From a virus (Duplodnaviria > Caudoviricetes): a stretch of 58,726 nt of DNA. Positions 2,848 through 25,414 of this stretch are shown here, piece after piece. Made by a program: the position numbers and the translations under genes. Within the stretch, counting starts at the first letter, position 1; every line of letters begins with the position of its first letter. Below the pieces are notes generated by a model. It was not told the origin of the DNA and searched no databases. It saw nothing but the letters and a program-made list of their open reading frames with translations. The stretch is from positions 1 to 58,726 of IMG/VR virus record IMGVR_UViG_3300012942_000005; one strand, given 5' to 3'.

Positions 2848-3024
2848 TCAGGGCCAGGTTAGCTAATTCGGGGATCGGCCCAGCAAGAGGCAATACATTT
2901 CTTCAACATGAACAGATAAGCGATTAAAAAGTAGTATTGGAAAAGCGCGTTGCCCTGAATTAATATTCTTACATGGGCAACGCGCAATCCCGCGCCAAGG
3001 CCCTGAATCTTAAGGATAATCATC

Positions 3025-3612
3025 ATGGCCTTCCCAACGAACATCGCGGCAATCAACGCCGCCAATGCTTTCCTCAAAGCCCAAGGGCTCCCGAAGGAAC
3101 AGCGCGCTCAGTTCTTCAAAATCGAAAAGCTCGATGGCGAATGGCATAGCCGCCAGATCGCCCCCTTCCCCGCGCCTCGTGATCCGCTTTCCTGCCTGAT
3201 GATCGAGCGGGATGGCATCTATCCCTTCCCCAAGGCTGGCGAAGGCGCGGAAGCGGATGCCACGAAAGCTAGCGAGGAAGATTTTGCAGCGGCTCAGGCC
3301 GCAGCGGATCGCGCGGCGGATGCCCAGCAATCGGCCGGCATCAAGGGCGGCAAGGAATGGATTCGGATGAGCACGATCGAGCGCCCGACCAAAATGGTGC
3401 ATGTGATTGCGGATGAAATGGTGGCCGCAGCAGCCGCCGAAGGCCGCGAGCGCCCGAGCCGCAAGGAAATCCAAGATGAATGCGTGCGCCGGGGGATCGC
3501 CAGCGGCACCGCTCGTACCCAGTACCAGGCATGGAAAAAGGCGAACGACAATGCCGCCGCCAATGCCGCGAATGCCGCCGCTCTCAGCGCCGCTTTCTCC
3601 CGACGCATCTAG
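3025..3612 (+). CDS. Early protein, paralog 2 of the same family
   Basis: TKMVHVIAD...GIASGTARTQYQAW; AAGGA RBS. Confidence 0.75.
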   Translation: MAFPTNIAAINAANAFLKAQGLPKEQRAQFFKIEKLDGEWHSRQIAPFPAPRDPLSCLMIERDGIYPFPKAGEGAEADATKASEEDFAAAQAAADRAADAQQSAGIKGGKEWIRMSTIERPTKMVHVIADEMVAAAAAEGRERPSRKEIQDECVRRGIASGTARTQYQAWKKANDNAAANAANAAALSAAFSRRI

Positions 3613-18160: not shown

Positions 18161-18850
18161 ATGCATATCGTGGTGGATAAGACGAATCTAAAAATGGTTG
18201 CGGCTGCGGCTAGCCTTAAATGGGCGAACCTGATCGCCTATGTCGATTTTGGCGAAGTCGCGACCTGTGTGGTGGATTCAGAGGACGGCCGCACGTGGAC
18301 GGTTCTCGATAAGGCGCAAATGGCCACGCTCTATACGAACATGAGCGGCCAGCCATCGCCCGAATATAAGGACGCCATCGAACAGCTGCGCGCCTATTCG
18401 TCCAGATGGCCGCTTTATCCGAAAACTGAACGCGACCTCGAACCTGTGGCCGAAGCCATTTATCAGGCGGAAATGGACGACCCTGAAATTCAATTGCATG
18501 CGGAAGAAACCGCAACAGCATTGAAACAGGAAGCCTTTCAGGCGACCGTGAGAGCTTGCGAGAATGCGCGCCCAGCCCAATCCTCGGAGCACCGCGCGGA
18601 AGCGCAGCAGCAAGCCGCCACGAAGCCGAAAGCGCCTCCTAGCGGCGAAGGCCAGCCCCGGCCGCGCCAAGGGATCACAAAAAAGATTTGGGAATACTGC
18701 GATATCGAACTCGCAGTGACCGGCCAGATGGGTGACCACAAGGCTTTCCGCCGCCGCGTGGTGGATCGAGTCAAGGCCGAGCACCCGGAAGCAAACGAAG
18801 GGACCATTGCTACACAGTTTGGGCATTGGCGTCGTGAACGGGGGCTGTGA
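18161..18850 (+). CDS. Paralog 3 of the GTxxxQ(Y/F)xxW family
   Basis: GITKKIWEYCD...EGTIATQFGHWRR; AGGAG RBS. Confidence 0.75.
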   Translation: MHIVVDKTNLKMVAAAASLKWANLIAYVDFGEVATCVVDSEDGRTWTVLDKAQMATLYTNMSGQPSPEYKDAIEQLRAYSSRWPLYPKTERDLEPVAEAIYQAEMDDPEIQLHAEETATALKQEAFQATVRACENARPAQSSEHRAEAQQQAATKPKAPPSGEGQPRPRQGITKKIWEYCDIELAVTGQMGDHKAFRRRVVDRVKAEHPEANEGTIATQFGHWRRERGL

Positions 18851-20133: not shown

Positions 20134-20712
20134 ATGACCGAAAGCACCAAAGCCCCGGAAACGGCAGACAAGGCCGCAGTGAAAGCGGCGAAGGACGCCG
20201 AGAAGGCGAAGAAGGCACAAGAAAAGGCCGACGCGAAAGCGAAAGCAGATGCCGAAAAGGCACAAGCGAAGCAAGCGGCCGAAGCCGCGAAGCTGTCGAA
20301 GGACACGAAGAACGGCATCACGCGACCGGCGCGTGGCGTCACGCTGCTGGTATGGACCACCGCCGATGCAATGTCGGCCGCGAAGGAAGCTCCCGCCGAA
20401 CGCGCCGACGTGGTCAAGGCGCTCGACGGCAAGGTCGAACAGGGCACCGTGCACACGCAGTTCGGCCGGTGGCGCAAGTATTATGGTCTGACCGAGACCA
20501 AGGAACAGCGCCAGACGCGTCTGGCCGACGCGAAGGCTGCGACCGCCGCGAAGAAAGCCGAGGAAAAGGCCAAGAAAGACGCGGAAAAGGCCGAAGCTAA
20601 GGTCAAGGCAGATGCCGAAAAGGCCGAGAAAGCCAAGGCCAAGGCCGACGCGAAGGCTGCGGCAGATGCGGAAAAGGCTCGCAAAGCCGAAGCCGCGAAG
20701 CAAGACGCTTAG
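20134..20712 (+). CDS. Lys/Ala-rich histone H1-like protein with central paralog-4 domain
   Basis: KA/DA/EK repeats flanking GVTLLVWTTAD...QGTVHTQFGRWRK. Confidence 0.8.
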   Translation: MTESTKAPETADKAAVKAAKDAEKAKKAQEKADAKAKADAEKAQAKQAAEAAKLSKDTKNGITRPARGVTLLVWTTADAMSAAKEAPAERADVVKALDGKVEQGTVHTQFGRWRKYYGLTETKEQRQTRLADAKAATAAKKAEEKAKKDAEKAEAKVKADAEKAEKAKAKADAKAAADAEKARKAEAAKQDA

Positions 20713-20736
20713 CAACAACCGCAGTAAGTTGCCGGT

Positions 20737-20801
20737 CGGCTGGGGTAGGTACAGATAGGGCTTTTTCACCCTATCACGCGTTCGAGTCGCGGCCCAGTTG
20801 T
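20737..20801 (+). ncRNA. D-armless tRNA-like element
   Basis: Acceptor-like CGGCTGGG/CCCAGTTG, 7-bp stem GATAGGG/CCCTATC with 8-nt loop, T-arm CGCG-TTCGAGT-CGCG; no D stem or encoded CCA. Confidence 0.6.
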
Positions 20802-20818
20802 AATAGTTTAACTCGCGA

Positions 20819-21259
20819 TATCAGCAGATCGGGCGCGCAGCGCTTAAGAAAAGTTGAGGAGTTGCCTTAAGGGAAGTCGCTACCGAAAGGCCCGAAGCGC
20901 GTACCGGTAAAAGTGGGTGAGCCATGCCAACCACAGCCGATCACAGAGACGACAAGTCTCAATGCGGCCGAGAGTTGATGGAGATACCCAAGCAACGCGC
21001 GTAAGTCTATTGGATACAGGGGCGGCCTATCGCGACGATGCGCGGCGGTCGCCGCCCCGACCGACATTTTAGAACGTTTATCCAGGGGTTACGGCACCTT
21101 TAGTCGAGGGCGGTCAACTGGGCGGCGTGACTAACCGCAATCAGTTCCTTGGCACGAACTCCGCGATAAGCGTTCTAGACGGACCGACCATCCGTGAAGT
21201 GGGCAAGGTCAACGAGTCAGTGAACTCTAAAAAGATAGCCCTAGGATGCTTTTCTGATA
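20819..21259 (+). ncRNA. Candidate large structured ncRNA (~440 nt)
   Basis: No credible ORF; ends pair with each other and more than ten nested helices are visible. Confidence 0.7.
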
Positions 21260-21264
21260 GAATT

Positions 21265-21339
21265 GGTTTAATCGTCCAGCGGTTAGGACAGCGCCCTGTC
21301 ACGGCGCAGACTCGGGTTCGACTCCCGATTAGACCGCCA
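21265..21339 (+). tRNA. tRNA-Asp(GUC)
   Basis: Full cloverleaf: GGTTTAA/TTAGACC, GTCC/GGAC, GCGCC-CTGTCAC-GGCGC, TCGGG-TTCGACT-CCCGA, G73, CCA. Confidence 0.95.
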
Positions 21340-21410
21340 AGCATTACCGCAGTTGGCACCGGCTTTTGCCGATCCCTTAGCCCGCTCACCTTAGAGACTC
21401 ACCACAATCC

Positions 21411-22163
21411 ATGCAACAGATTAACTTCCAGCGTCCCGAAAAGGCGACGACTCAGGGCAATGGCGAAATCCTCCTAATCCACTCTGTGTTTTTTACAATT
21501 CAAGGCGAGGGTCCGAATGTCGGCAAACCTGCTGTTTTTGTGCGCCTTGGCGGCTGCAATCTTCAATGTCCGGGTTGCGACACTGACTACACGCATGGAG
21601 TCGCAAACGAACACATCGAGTCCATCGTTACTCGAATTGGAATGGCTTTTGGTGATTACAAGGGCGAACGCTTGGTAGTTATCACGGGCGGCGAGCCGTT
21701 CAGGCAAGAACTCGAACGGTTTATCAACAGTTTGTTTCGGCTGGGATACGTGGTGCAGATTGAAACGAATGGTACGCTCGGTTTTCGCGAGCCGGAAGAA
21801 CTGACGTTCTTTGCAAGAAGATTTCTTCAAATCGTGGTCAGCCCTAAAGCGGGCAAAGTTGCCGAAAGCCTCTATCCGTGGATCACGGCGTACAAGTATG
21901 TGCTGGATATCGTGCATATCGATCCGAAAGACGGATTACCGACTTCGGCGCTAGGTATGCCGGCCGCACCTGCTCGGCCGCATGCTGGCTTTTTTGGCGA
22001 CGTGTACGTGCAACCCGCTGACGAGCCGAAAGAGGAAGAATTTGAAGACGTCGGTGCAATCAATCGCGCGAACGACGATAACCTAGAAGCTTGCATTCAA
22101 GTTGCCAAGAAGTTCGGTTATCGGGTCTGCATTCAAACTCATAAGATTCTTGGCGTCGCATAA
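21411..22163 (+). CDS. queE: 7-carboxy-7-deazaguanine synthase (radical SAM)
   Basis: TIQGEG, FVRLGGCNLQCPGCDT, TGGEP, IETNGT, VSPK, QTHK. Confidence 0.95.
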   Translation: MQQINFQRPEKATTQGNGEILLIHSVFFTIQGEGPNVGKPAVFVRLGGCNLQCPGCDTDYTHGVANEHIESIVTRIGMAFGDYKGERLVVITGGEPFRQELERFINSLFRLGYVVQIETNGTLGFREPEELTFFARRFLQIVVSPKAGKVAESLYPWITAYKYVLDIVHIDPKDGLPTSALGMPAAPARPHAGFFGDVYVQPADEPKEEEFEDVGAINRANDDNLEACIQVAKKFGYRVCIQTHKILGVA

Positions 22164-22191
22164 ATTGTAGTTCAAACTCTGGAGTTTCAAA

Positions 22192-22923
22192 ATGAGCAAA
22201 GCGGTAATCGTATTTTCGGGCGGTCAGGATTCAACGACCGTCCTCGGCATGGCTCGTCACATGGGCTATGATTGCTACGCCATCGGCTTCGACTACGGCC
22301 AGAAGCACGCGGTCGAGTTGCAGCAAGCGCGGAAGATTGCGGCCAAGCTCGGCGTACCGTACCATGTGGTCAATATCCGCGAATTCGGCAAGCTCGTCGG
22401 CGCGGGATCGGCCCTACTGAACAACGGGCAAGAAGTGACCGACGCTTCGCGCATCGTGAAGGACGTACCGGCTTCGTTCGTGCCGAATCGCAATGCAGTC
22501 ATGCTCACGATCGCGCACGGCTACGCGCAGATGATCGAGGCGGATACGGTCTGGACTGGCGTCTGTCAGACGGACTACAGCGGCTACCCGGATTGCCGGC
22601 TGGAGTTTATTCAGAAACTGAATGTCGCCTTGAATCTCGGGTACAAGACGCAAATCTCGATTCTGACGCCGCTGATGCATTGCACGAAGGGCGAAACGTT
22701 CAAGTTGGCAGAAGAAGCGGGCGTGCTCGACTTGGTGATCGAGGAGTCGCATACGTGCTATAACGGCATCCGACAAGTCGGCCCGACGATGCCTGACCGT
22801 TGGGAATGGGGCCACGGCTGCGGCGAGTGCCCGGCTTGCCTACTGCGCGCGAAGGGCTGGGAAGACTACAAGGCAATGGAACATATCGCGGAAGGCCGGG
22901 TCACTGGGAAGGCGGCGCAATAA
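22192..22923 (+). CDS. queC: 7-cyano-7-deazaguanine (preQ0) synthase
   Basis: SGGQDS, DYGQKH, FVPNRN, GYPDCR, TCY...CGECPAC. Confidence 0.96.
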   Translation: MSKAVIVFSGGQDSTTVLGMARHMGYDCYAIGFDYGQKHAVELQQARKIAAKLGVPYHVVNIREFGKLVGAGSALLNNGQEVTDASRIVKDVPASFVPNRNAVMLTIAHGYAQMIEADTVWTGVCQTDYSGYPDCRLEFIQKLNVALNLGYKTQISILTPLMHCTKGETFKLAEEAGVLDLVIEESHTCYNGIRQVGPTMPDRWEWGHGCGECPACLLRAKGWEDYKAMEHIAEGRVTGKAAQ

Positions 22924-23387
22924 TGTACCTCTCGACAAAATGTTATGGGCATGAAGAAGGACTTTCATGCGCCTTTCGCCAGTGGCGGGCGAATCATTCC
23001 CATTGCCAGCTGTTGCACGGGTACGCGCTCTCGTTCAAGTTCGTTTTTGCCGCAGACAAGCGCGACGAACGCGGCTGGGTGATGGACTTCGGCGGTCTCA
23101 AAGGGCTCAAGCAACAACTCAAGGATACCTTTGACCACAAAGTTGCTATCGCGGCCGACGATCCATATCGGGCAACGTTTATGTCGATGAACGACGTAGG
23201 AATCATGGACGTGTTGATTTTCGAAGGGGGTGTCGGTATCGAAAATTTCGCACGGGAAGCGTGGTACCTTGCGACCGTTTTCCTGAACGAAAACTACCCC
23301 GAGCACGTCAAGTCGCGCGGGCTCCGCGTAGTATCCTGCGAATGCGCCGAGCATGGCGCTAACTCTGCAATTTACGTCAACGATTAA
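22923..23387 (+). CDS. queD: 6-carboxy-5,6,7,8-tetrahydropterin synthase
   Basis: HCQLLHGY, VMDFGGLK, FDH, EN.A; start at ATG 22923 (TAATG overlap). Confidence 0.93.
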   Translation: MYLSTKCYGHEEGLSCAFRQWRANHSHCQLLHGYALSFKFVFAADKRDERGWVMDFGGLKGLKQQLKDTFDHKVAIAADDPYRATFMSMNDVGIMDVLIFEGGVGIENFAREAWYLATVFLNENYPEHVKSRGLRVVSCECAEHGANSAIYVND

Positions 23388-23394
23388 AGAGAAC

Positions 23395-24231
23395 ATGGGC
23401 GATCTTAAACAAGAAGTGCAAACCACCATTTTCGATGATGGTGACGAAGGCAAGCCGATGCAAAGGAGTATAACGGCCTCTCACAATTGTGCCAAGTGCG
23501 GCACCGGCTATGCTGGACCAGAGTGCAAAGGTAGCCCCGGTCTGTTTATTTCGGGCGTGGGTCATTTGAGCGATGCGGAAATTGCGGAGTTGATAGGTGC
23601 GAGGCCGAACTCGGTCGTTAGAGTTGGGCCGGTGTCGCAATTGGAGCCTATCAGCAAATCGCTGAGCGAAGGAGTCATCAGCGATTTGCTGGCGCATGTC
23701 ATCGGCGAGGACGTGAATCGCGAAGGGCTGCGCGAGACCCCGGCGCGGGTGGTGAAAGCATGGAAAGCATGGACTGCGGGCTATGCGCAAGACCCGGCCG
23801 AAGTGCTGAAAGTGTTCGAAGATGGTGGCGAAGCTACGCACGGCCAGTGGATCATCGTCAAGGATATCCCCATCTACAGTCACTGTGAACACCACCTCGC
23901 GCCGTTCTTCGGCACGGCCACGATCGGCTATGTGTCGAGTGGCCGGGTCGTCGGGCTTTCGAAGCTCGCGCGGCTCGCTGACGTGTATGCCAAGCGGCTG
24001 CAAGTGCAGGAGCGCCTTACGAATCAGATCGCAGACGCGCTGATTCAGGTACTTGATGCCCCGGTTGCCGCGGTGGCGCTGAATTGTCGCCACATGTGTA
24101 TGGAATCGCGCGGCATCCAGCGCACGGGCAGCAGCACGTCGACTTTCGCGTTCAAATGCGGCCCGATGGTGACCGTCGACGGGCTTAAAGAGTACCGCAT
24201 CGAATTCTTCGAACAGCTGTCGGTGCTCTGA
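23395..24231 (+). CDS. folE: GTP cyclohydrolase I with N-terminal extension
   Basis: GED..REGL.ETPARV, SHCEHHLAPFFG, GLSKLAR, RLQVQERLT, HMCMESRG. Confidence 0.95.
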   Translation: MGDLKQEVQTTIFDDGDEGKPMQRSITASHNCAKCGTGYAGPECKGSPGLFISGVGHLSDAEIAELIGARPNSVVRVGPVSQLEPISKSLSEGVISDLLAHVIGEDVNREGLRETPARVVKAWKAWTAGYAQDPAEVLKVFEDGGEATHGQWIIVKDIPIYSHCEHHLAPFFGTATIGYVSSGRVVGLSKLARLADVYAKRLQVQERLTNQIADALIQVLDAPVAAVALNCRHMCMESRGIQRTGSSTSTFAFKCGPMVTVDGLKEYRIEFFEQLSVL

Positions 24232-24500
24232 TGGAGAAGCGGCCCCCGAAACTGGTTGTTGCTCCGCGATTGGAGCATGCGGAGTACTTCGCGCGCGAGG
24301 TGATGCTGTGGGGCCGCTCCGAATGGAAGTATGTTAGCAGCCCCGAAAAGTTGCAGGGCATGCAATATGTTTTCATCTTCAAGGTGGTTGCGCCTCGCCA
24401 TCGATTCGGCTCGCATGGGGATGAGGAAAAGTACGAACAGATTCTGCAAATCCTCGCATCGCGCCACAACGTTCGCATCAACATTTACGTCCTGAAATGA
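24231..24500 (+). CDS. Hypothetical protein inside the deazaguanine operon
   Basis: TGATG and ATGA overlaps with folE and dpdA. Confidence 0.65.
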   Translation: MEKRPPKLVVAPRLEHAEYFAREVMLWGRSEWKYVSSPEKLQGMQYVFIFKVVAPRHRFGSHGDEEKYEQILQILASRHNVRINIYVLK

Positions 24501-25414
24501 ATCTCTATATCGCCGGTCTGTACACTGCGAACTTCCAGTATGGCGGTCCGGGCTGGAGCAATCTAGATGACCGGGAGAAGCAAGCCCATGCAAGCGTTGA
24601 GAACAAACTCGAGTCTTACCACTATATCGGGAAAGGACGGTATGCCTTACGGATTCGTGAGAACGGGGACCGAGTATTTTTGGACAGCGGAGCCTTTTCC
24701 GCGTTCTCGTTGGGGGTCGAAGTCGATCTGCCCGAATATTGCCGCTGGATACAAGAAAATCTCGACATTGTACGGGTCGAGGACGGCGATCTTATGGCTT
24801 CCGTACTTGATGGAATTGGCGATCCACTCAAGACGTATCGCAACCAACTCGCGATGGAACAATTGGGAGTTCGGCCTCTCCCTTGTTTTCACTATGGCGA
24901 GGACGAGCGGTATCTGGAACATTACATCGCAAATTACAGGTATATCACAATCGGCGGCATGGTGCCGATTTCGACGCCCCAATTATTCCATTGGCTTGAT
25001 CGAATCTGGAACAAGTACCTCATTGATGGGTCCGGTCGGGCTCGCATTAAGGTACATGGATTCGGACTGACTTCGCTACCGCTGATGCAGGAATATCCGT
25101 GGTATAGCGTTGACTCCTCATCATGGGTGCAAATCGGCGCGCACGGAAACATCATCATGGACGGTAAGACGCTCGCGTTTTCGAGCCAATCGCCTAGCCG
25201 AAAGAATGCGAATCAGCACGTCGACTCGCTCCCGGAGACTATGCGGTCTGCGATTGAGCAAAAGCTGGTCAGCATGGGATATGATCCTATCAGGCTTCGC
25301 GATATCCAATATAGTCGCTGGGCCTTTAACGCTGAGCAGTTCGCCAACATGGGCCGCGAACTCAAAGCGCGAGGAATTACGTTCGATAACCAGCAACCGG
25401 AGCTTTTCTCATGA
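24497..25414 (+). CDS. dpdA: DNA 7-deazaguanine transglycosylase (TGT fold)
   Basis: FLDSGAFSA, P.FH.GE, GG.V, VHGFG.T, SVDSSSW; follows que genes. Confidence 0.88.
   Translation: MNLYIAGLYTANFQYGGPGWSNLDDREKQAHASVENKLESYHYIGKGRYALRIRENGDRVFLDSGAFSAFSLGVEVDLPEYCRWIQENLDIVRVEDGDLMASVLDGIGDPLKTYRNQLAMEQLGVRPLPCFHYGEDERYLEHYIANYRYITIGGMVPISTPQLFHWLDRIWNKYLIDGSGRARIKVHGFGLTSLPLMQEYPWYSVDSSSWVQIGAHGNIIMDGKTLAFSSQSPSRKNANQHVDSLPETMRSAIEQKLVSMGYDPIRLRDIQYSRWAFNAEQFANMGRELKARGITFDNQQPELFS

Follow-up and report, generated by a model that had tools for sequence, protein, structure and literature searches.

GOLLD and ROOL RNAs are encoded by phages near tRNA genes, contain pseudoknots and are of unknown function (10.1101/2024.12.08.627333; PMC5737381). 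The species I and II RNAs of phage T4 are not tRNAs, and they belong to the same primary transcript as the phage tRNA cluster (PMC2330249). The theta (HDV-like) ribozymes of gut phages are pseudoknotted and lie beside phage tRNAs (PMC10879173), and Y RNAs also mimic tRNA (PMC4201824). Phage tRNAs have been proposed as a counter to anticodon nucleases (PMC10264068), and tRNAs and Y RNA/Ro60 have been connected with the damaging and mending of RNA in conflicts (PMC10264068; PMC7824862; PMC4201824).

The window analyzed here is a complete virus genome of 58,726 bases with direct terminal repeats. Its nearest named relative by both proteins that flank the locus is Burkholderia phage BcepGomr (QueE, 52%; core of the upstream protein, 60%). 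The stretch under study (20819-21259) sits within a 698-base spacer that runs from a phrog_18634 gene to queE (Table 1). Comparison with homologs indicates that the structured phage RNA encoded there is real, has not been described before and is rare; it is of a known general kind and is built of modules, each supported by two to three lineages.

Table 1. Features of the RNA locus and its flanks (window coordinates).
Feature	Position	Strand	Remark
Ala/Lys/Glu-rich conserved protein (phrog_18634), ~70-aa core; left edge of the slot	20134..20712	+	
tRNA-like element (tRNA mimic)	20738..20800	+	Homolog in L058, compensatory stems
Likely 5′ end: ACUCG (5′ strand of closing helix P1), then small hairpin 20816-31	20811..20831	+	Placed from homologs
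Module M1 core (~145 nt)	20864..21007	+	
M1 helix Y	20864-66/20889-91	+	Encloses exactly 22 nt
M1 pseudoknot helix K	20892-94/20905-07	+	
M1 helix A	20897-902/20995-21000	+	12-nt linker to helix B
M1 helix B	20915-19/20985-89	+	Followed by AG/AGA loop
M1 helix C	20922-25/20978-81	+	
Window-specific ~50-nt extension of helix C	20926..20977	+	GCAA tetraloop instead in L060/L061
M1 conserved AGUC	21004-07	+	
G+C-rich hairpin at the site of the 5-bp hairpin of L060/L061	21019..21058	+	Pair probability 0.97-1.0
Module M2 with 14-15-bp closing helix	21069..21178	+	Stand-alone in L056/L057
M2 P1	21078-93/21155-69	+	
M2 hairpin P2	21094-99/21107-11	+	
M2 P3	21112-15/21144-47	+	
M2 loop-loop pseudoknot	21101-06/21128-33	+	
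Small hairpin 21179-95, linker, CGAGU 21213-17 (likely 3′ strand of P1)	21179..21217	+	Probable assignment
Weakly structured tail, likely 5′ leader of tRNA-Asp	21218..21264	+	z +0.38 for 21179-21264
tRNA-Asp(GUC), CCA encoded	21265..21339	+	
queE leader element, clade-conserved; right edge of the slot	21356..21380	+	4-bp covarying hairpin, then AUCCCUUAG
Deazaguanine DNA-modification genes: queE, queC, queD, folE, small ORF, tRNA-ribosyltransferase-like (dpdA-type)	21411..25414	+	

Like GOLLD, the window RNA is found in a phage and near tRNA genes; a further mark of GOLLD is its assembly into a multimeric RNA nanocage. In contrast to GOLLD and ROOL it is built of separable modules and is very rare, and it is shorter: at most ~400 nt with a family core of ~170 nt, when many GOLLD RNAs exceed 800 nt and ROOL RNAs average 581 nt. 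The space between the two tRNA-type elements is 464 nt, which speaks against ROOL. In agreement with an earlier sequence-only reading of this DNA, which had put the RNA forward as a candidate novel one, the stretch matched no Rfam family even at E ≤ 10, and tRNA-Asp was the sole Rfam find. Since neither the GOLLD model (conserved 3′ domain) nor the ROOL model matched at E ≤ 10, the stretch is not GOLLD or ROOL; the homolog loci gave no GOLLD match either. With T4 species I and II it shares the position of a small non-tRNA RNA among tRNA genes and, by analogy, perhaps the processing; unlike them, the window region and the homologs of its modules had no blastn match in INPHARED, tRNA excepted. 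Theta ribozymes are likewise pseudoknotted and beside phage tRNAs (PMC10879173), but the modules of the window do not begin at a tRNA 3′ end.

The sequence-only reading had described the stretch as one closed, ornate, GOLLD/ROOL-like domain without a credible ORF, bracketed by tRNA-type elements. The last two points hold: tRNA-Asp and the tRNA-like element bracket it, and the four overlapping ORFs of at least 50 aa, two of which extend across the tRNA, had PHROGs E values not better than 0.07. All 16 helices that it listed are complementary. The single domain did not withstand folding against shuffled sequences: the 441-nt whole gave z -1.69, with 6 of 100 shuffles equally good. The sub-regions 20897-21000 (z -2.89) and 21069-21178 (z -3.41) were better than shuffles, and both ends were not (z 0.01 and 0.38). 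The proposed outer pairs 20831/21241, 20853/21213 and 20862/21206 had pair probabilities of just 0.02-0.10, and the end pair 20819/21259 reached 0.2-0.5 solely when the sequence was cut exactly there (0.03-0.08 with natural flanks). Its helix 20862-67 clashes with 20864-66/20889-91, which covaries in homologs, and its GAAA tetraloop (20885-88) is absent from them. The claim of an undescribed structured noncoding RNA is supported, and the comparison with homologs points to a composite of at least two separable modules with other ends, rather than a single ornate domain.

The protein at the left edge carries a net charge of just +12 (K+R 45, D+E 33), and in a structure look-up its core resembled LexA/HrcA-type winged helices weakly, below the level required for a name. 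The gene at 18161-18850 (phrog_7864) ends with a paralog of the same ~70-aa core (35% identity in L054). The tRNA mimic has a 7-bp acceptor stem, a stemless D-loop, a 7-bp anticodon stem, an 8-nt anticodon loop and a T arm. Its homolog in L058 (1402-1472) is identical at 68 of 92 positions (E 4e-10) and likewise lacks a D-stem and has 8 nt in its anticodon loop; the acceptor and anticodon stems of the pair are compensatory. D-loop and T arm are identical in the two, and the acceptor, the discriminator and the anticodon loop (UUUU in the window, UUCG in L058) differ. Both lack an encoded CCA and G3-U70. The mimic may serve as a signal for processing or as a decoy for anticodon nucleases. On the other side of the stretch, the hairpin of the queE leader has a variable loop and is followed by AUCCCUUAG; it is present in L047, L055-L059, L239 and L241 and altered in L063. 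A processing site, an operator or a phage promoter are possible roles for this leader. A separate sequence at 21255-21263, TGATAGAAT, resembles an extended -10 box, and L060 carries it too, 17 bases past TTGCAA. In the window it lies just 1 base ahead of tRNA-Asp, which would put a start site within the tRNA.

When the region was compared by blastn with phages, all of the 34 records found were matched through tRNA-Asp, and plasmids gave one short match, in a LacI gene. Because direct DNA searches gave nothing, related loci were gathered through the flanking proteins. Both flanking genes were found in 51 distinct loci, with spacers of 32 to 2296 nt (34 under 140 nt). The longer spacers carry tRNA-Pro, -Asp, -Val and -Gln, the L058 spacer carries the tRNA mimic, YrlA-like repeats occur below the gathering score (E 0.0005-0.04), and in G031 a TROVE (Ro60) match exceeded the cut-off. 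Of the 14 spacers tested, 6 held unclassified elements with long closing helices of 15-23 bp, above the shuffle maxima of 12-15, and 8 did not exceed their maxima. The locus is thus a slot with variable cargo, a hot spot between the Ala/Lys-rich gene and queE. The upstream protein, which had been suggested as a partner of the RNA, precedes queE in 51 of 51 loci, mostly with spacers too short for the RNA; because it is present with or without cargo, it is an unlikely partner. The suggested tie to the deazaguanine genes fares no better, as most relatives with the same operon are without the RNA.

Other cargo of the slot was also observed. Y RNA-like repeats and Ro60/TROVE lie between the same upstream gene and queE in L060 (2330-3030), L061 (2330-3160) and G031 (~63-kb phage), and in G031 they separate a homolog of the first module (M1) from queE. 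A third undescribed motif of ~110 nt, without an Rfam match, is found in two phages (L063 375-480, the same as L240, and L058 1475-1592); it consists of a small arm followed by an H-type pseudoknot with a covarying loop pairing, within a 13-17-bp closing helix. Further cargo, most of it with long closing helices, occupies L047 (BcepGomr; 2912-3332), L036 (2527-2610), L001 (3601-3677) and L033 (2737-2862), and also L241 (3007-3087), L055 (622-718) and L239 (2924-3085). The L036 and L047 cargoes are rods with a pyrimidine-rich, anti-Shine-Dalgarno-like bulge, and that of L033 has a CUAGUCA loop, as in the second module (M2). In L009 (2803-2952) the slot is occupied by a tandem pair of tRNA-like genes whose anticodon arms are shrunken. 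An apparent enrichment of UAGUC over the spacers was discarded: it ranked 16th among 5-mers, uncorrected, and came partly from the shared leader.

Homologs of M1 were found in two related phages, L060 and L061, as a ~170-nt element that, by eye, has motifs in common with 20864-21007. Helix K crosses helix A, so the M1 core is pseudoknotted. A covariance model from L060 and L061 only (70% identical, with L061 misaligned in one helix) placed 20847-21015 first of 80 matches in the 58.7-kb genome (22.2 bits, E ~4e-5; next-best match 12.8 bits). The calibration of this score is rough: within apparent bacterial coding sequence, a chance match of 21.4 bits was seen among 150 genomes of one bacterial family, and the 22.2 bits are meaningful only because the search space is small and the locus is shared. 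A sequence-only profile gave E 0.061.

The hand alignment of the three sequences that make up the whole support for M1 had 62 of 63 cells paired over 21 positions, with both sides changed at 9 and one side at 3. Helices A, B and C of the nested arm are a fair test, since the sequence-only reading had drawn them without knowledge of any homolog: 44 of 45 cells were paired and 7 of 15 pairs showed compensatory changes. That arm (20897-902/20995-21000, 20914-18/20986-90 and 20922-25/20978-81) was recovered at probabilities of 0.75-0.98, covarying with the two homologs. Helices Y and K, and all inner helices of M2, were chosen after the homologs had been viewed, and their counts are thus biased in favour. 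A model-fitted alignment of three rows, which leans toward the model, was 94% paired with 10 both-side changes; 0-1 of 500 shuffles scored as high for four of the five measures, and 16 of 500 for the fifth. The 22-nt loop and the 12-nt linker are constant among homologs. Helix Z is degenerate in the window, and the homolog sequences alone fold no better than shuffles (z +0.83 and +0.47). Downstream of M1, L060 and L061 have a G+C hairpin and a short run rich in U and A.

When the whole 698-nt cassette was folded, the 5′ strand of the tRNA mimic paired with 20927-40 (0.96-0.97), disrupting its acceptor stem and helices A and B. The segments 20736-20749 and 20927-20940, the latter in the inserted M1 arm, are complementary at 12 of 14 positions (p about 0.07 against shuffles). 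This pairing, which speaks against a simple picture, may be an artefact of the modelling, in which neither pseudoknots nor the tertiary contacts of tRNA are considered, or it may mark a precursor that processing later relieves. The idea that the stretch pairs with the ends of the flanking tRNAs was dropped (p 0.07-0.6 against shuffles).

M2 (21078-21170, ~100 nt) aligned with L056 without gaps, 61 of 93 positions being identical (E 4e-6 against the whole window). In L056 and L057 (identical to each other at 97 of 101 positions, so that M2 is supported by two lineages) it is the sole element between the upstream gene and the queE leader, and there is no tRNA. Three helices make up the conserved fold: the closing stem, a hairpin with its loop paired to 21128-33, and P3; the hairpin stem covaries (CCU/AGG against CGG/CCG). 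In total 89 of 90 cells were paired and 5 pairs were changed on both sides, for a structure chosen from the same sequences of two lineages. Among the pairings that the sequence-only reading had drawn here, the 14-bp helix 21069-82/21165-78 and the crossing pair 21100-05/21129-34 were borne out by the comparison, and the register of 21116-20/21142-46 was not preserved in L056/L057. GACCGAC is found at 21059-21065 and 21183-21189, on both sides of M2; these repeats might be a short duplication left by an insertion, or chance. A likeness by eye to the loop-loop pair in the L033, L058 and L063 cargoes was rejected (E 0.4-2.4; the L063 match was the closing stem only).

The L060/L061 element is closed by CUCG/CGAG, and ACUCG at 20811-15 has the same position and letters as in these homologs. 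Pairing of ACUCG with CGAGU at 21213-17 is the best-supported closing of the composite, although weak by energy: its pair probability was 0.14-0.20 in 20801-21264 and 0 in the whole-cassette fold, and for the likely 5′ end (20811-20831) the pair probability was just 0.14-0.28. Homologs place the likely ends of the RNA near 20811 and 21217. By these comparisons, the stretch combines M2 with a form of M1 that a 50-nt arm and a larger hairpin make longer. M2 is somewhat more probably enclosed by the closing helix of M1 than placed merely after M1.

Wider searches for both modules gave little. M1 and M2 homologs had no blastn match in phages. Motif scans of IMG/VR returned 4 loci, none similar by nhmmer; 90 and 85 loci in two scans, solely the L061 record being related; 16 loci, none similar; and 6 loci, of which 3 were already known and 3 unrelated. 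A GTDB scan returned 12 loci, all judged by eye to be chance. The patterns were derived from two to three sequences, so diverged members would be missed. Among 36 related virus records, covariance model R1 (M1) matched just that of L061, and it gave one chance match in 150 genomes of one bacterial family; model R2 (M2) matched 0 of 35 related virus records. Literature searches turned up no description of the RNA. A partial overlap with the catalogue of PMC10690425 (10,006 candidates of 30-151 nt) is possible; the three of its six supplementary files that were searched gave no match.

Known RNAs were also compared with the stretch. The setting resembles that of YrlA/Ro60: the M1 homologs in this slot have YrlA-like repeats around them and a TROVE gene downstream. 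M1 and M2 had no Rfam match to YrlA, the Ro60-binding motif GNCGAA(N)G is absent from 20811-21217 by reading, and the window genome has no TROVE/Ro60 gene (the control was positive in 2 of 14 genomes). RNase P RNA gave no Rfam match, and CR-I to CR-V were not found; a word-level likeness to it, judged by eye, was lost in L060/L061, whose core is too short. Likenesses to a group I intron and to cobalamin, SAM-I, glmS and lysine riboswitches, at word level, had no Rfam backing and were set aside. A tmRNA, permuted or not, was rejected: ARAGORN made no call at default settings, Rfam gave none, and the mimic and its L058 homolog are without G3-U70 and CCA. A permuted tmRNA was called solely at a lowered threshold, which also called two in L036. 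No Rfam aptamer, for preQ1 or other known riboswitches, matched in the stretch, and the only match, for c-di-GMP (13.7 bits, E 3.1), lies outside it.

How would such an RNA be made and used? Tentatively, and at a little under an even chance, we regard it as a composite M1+M2 noncoding RNA (~20811-21217) that is excised by host tRNA-processing enzymes and works as a trans-acting decoy, binding proteins to counter RNA-directed defences of the host. The reasons for the decoy reading are indirect: both modules are closed from end to end, their movement does not follow that of the que genes, and tRNAs, the mimic and Y RNA/Ro60 occupy the same slot. The role is predicted from this company, in which the mimic has an 8-nt anticodon loop and the Y RNA-like repeats come with Ro60. 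Transcription that starts from the upstream gene would read through the slot into queE, and a single transcript is probable because no terminator-like site was found between 20712 and 21411, nor in 20800-21400. RNase P would cut at the 5′ end of tRNA-Asp (21265), as in standard tRNA maturation, and an endonucleolytic 3′ cut after the tRNA mimic would fall in the A/U-rich 20801-10. By analogy, tRNA processing plausibly releases the RNA. P1 would close the product, with M2 hanging inside M1 as an inserted domain, and the conserved unpaired nucleotides (GAA..UA loop, AG/AGA loop and AGUC) may form a protein-binding surface.

It is rather unlikely that M1 (about 20811-21060) and M2 (21069-21178) are separate tandem small RNAs, each processed alone, with no ~400-nt species. 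The isolated M2 of L056/L057 with its own 14-15-bp closing helix, like other cargo of the slot, is what tandem RNAs predict; all long-range closing helices are of low probability, and the GACCGAC on both sides of M2 is a possible trace of its insertion. However, the ACUCG of the window occupies the homologous 5′ place, and its sole downstream CGAGU partner lies beyond M2, at 21213. Far less probable is a stretch without function in the present phage, either a spacer in decay or one pieced together from remnants of mobile RNAs. The modest whole-region z (just -1.69), the degenerate helix Z and the free gain and loss of cargo among relatives would fit decay, but paired positions have co-changed in both modules with fixed spacings, and 698 non-coding bases have been retained in a tightly packed genome.

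Two further readings appear improbable, to a similar degree. M1 might be a ligand-sensing aptamer or attenuator of read-through downstream, for example sensing a deazaguanine intermediate. Its core is pseudoknotted with conserved unpaired purines, the L060/L061 copies are followed by the G+C hairpin and U/A-rich run, and every checkable M1 or M2 copy is upstream of queE on the same strand. This is opposed by the lack of matches to riboswitch families and of a terminator-like site in 20800-21400, by the separation of M1 from queE, through either tRNA-Asp or a 2.3-kb block of Y RNA-like repeats with Ro60, and by the scarcity of the modules (M1 in 1 of 36 related records, M2 in 0 of 35), although nearly all of these records came from a queE search. 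Alternatively, M1 or M2 might be a new ribozyme that helps to cut a polycistronic tRNA/Y RNA precursor, comparable to theta ribozymes, which have been proposed to process phage tRNA 3′ trailers (PMC10879173). Compact folds with several pseudoknots among processed RNAs would suit such a role. Against it, no Rfam ribozyme matched at E ≤ 10. The theta/HDV nested double pseudoknot P1-P4, with a catalytic C in J4/2, was not found with Rfam or with a loose descriptor run without a positive control. That descriptor and the hammerhead, pistol and hairpin core motifs matched nothing, and a twister motif gave one minus-strand match only. The M2 of L056 has no adjoining tRNA, and both modules are closed end-to-end and do not abut a tRNA end.

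A broader proposal, which we consider unlikely on present evidence, is that the slot is an exchangeable island of RNA-only counter-defence genes, in which at least five undescribed folds rotate with tRNAs, the mimic and Y RNA/Ro60, two of them being fused here into a ~400-nt RNA by domain insertion.

Large phage RNAs beside tRNAs (GOLLD, ROOL, T4 species I/II) are not known to have a function. Here one core comes in a minimal (~170 nt) and an expanded (~400 nt) version, and the inserted module is also found alone; nature has thus defined minimal constructs for probing, pull-down and structure determination. Several more undescribed RNA folds occupy one orthologous position, one of them in BcepGomr, the only cultured phage found with long cargo in the slot; this makes the role of RNAs of tRNA clusters testable.
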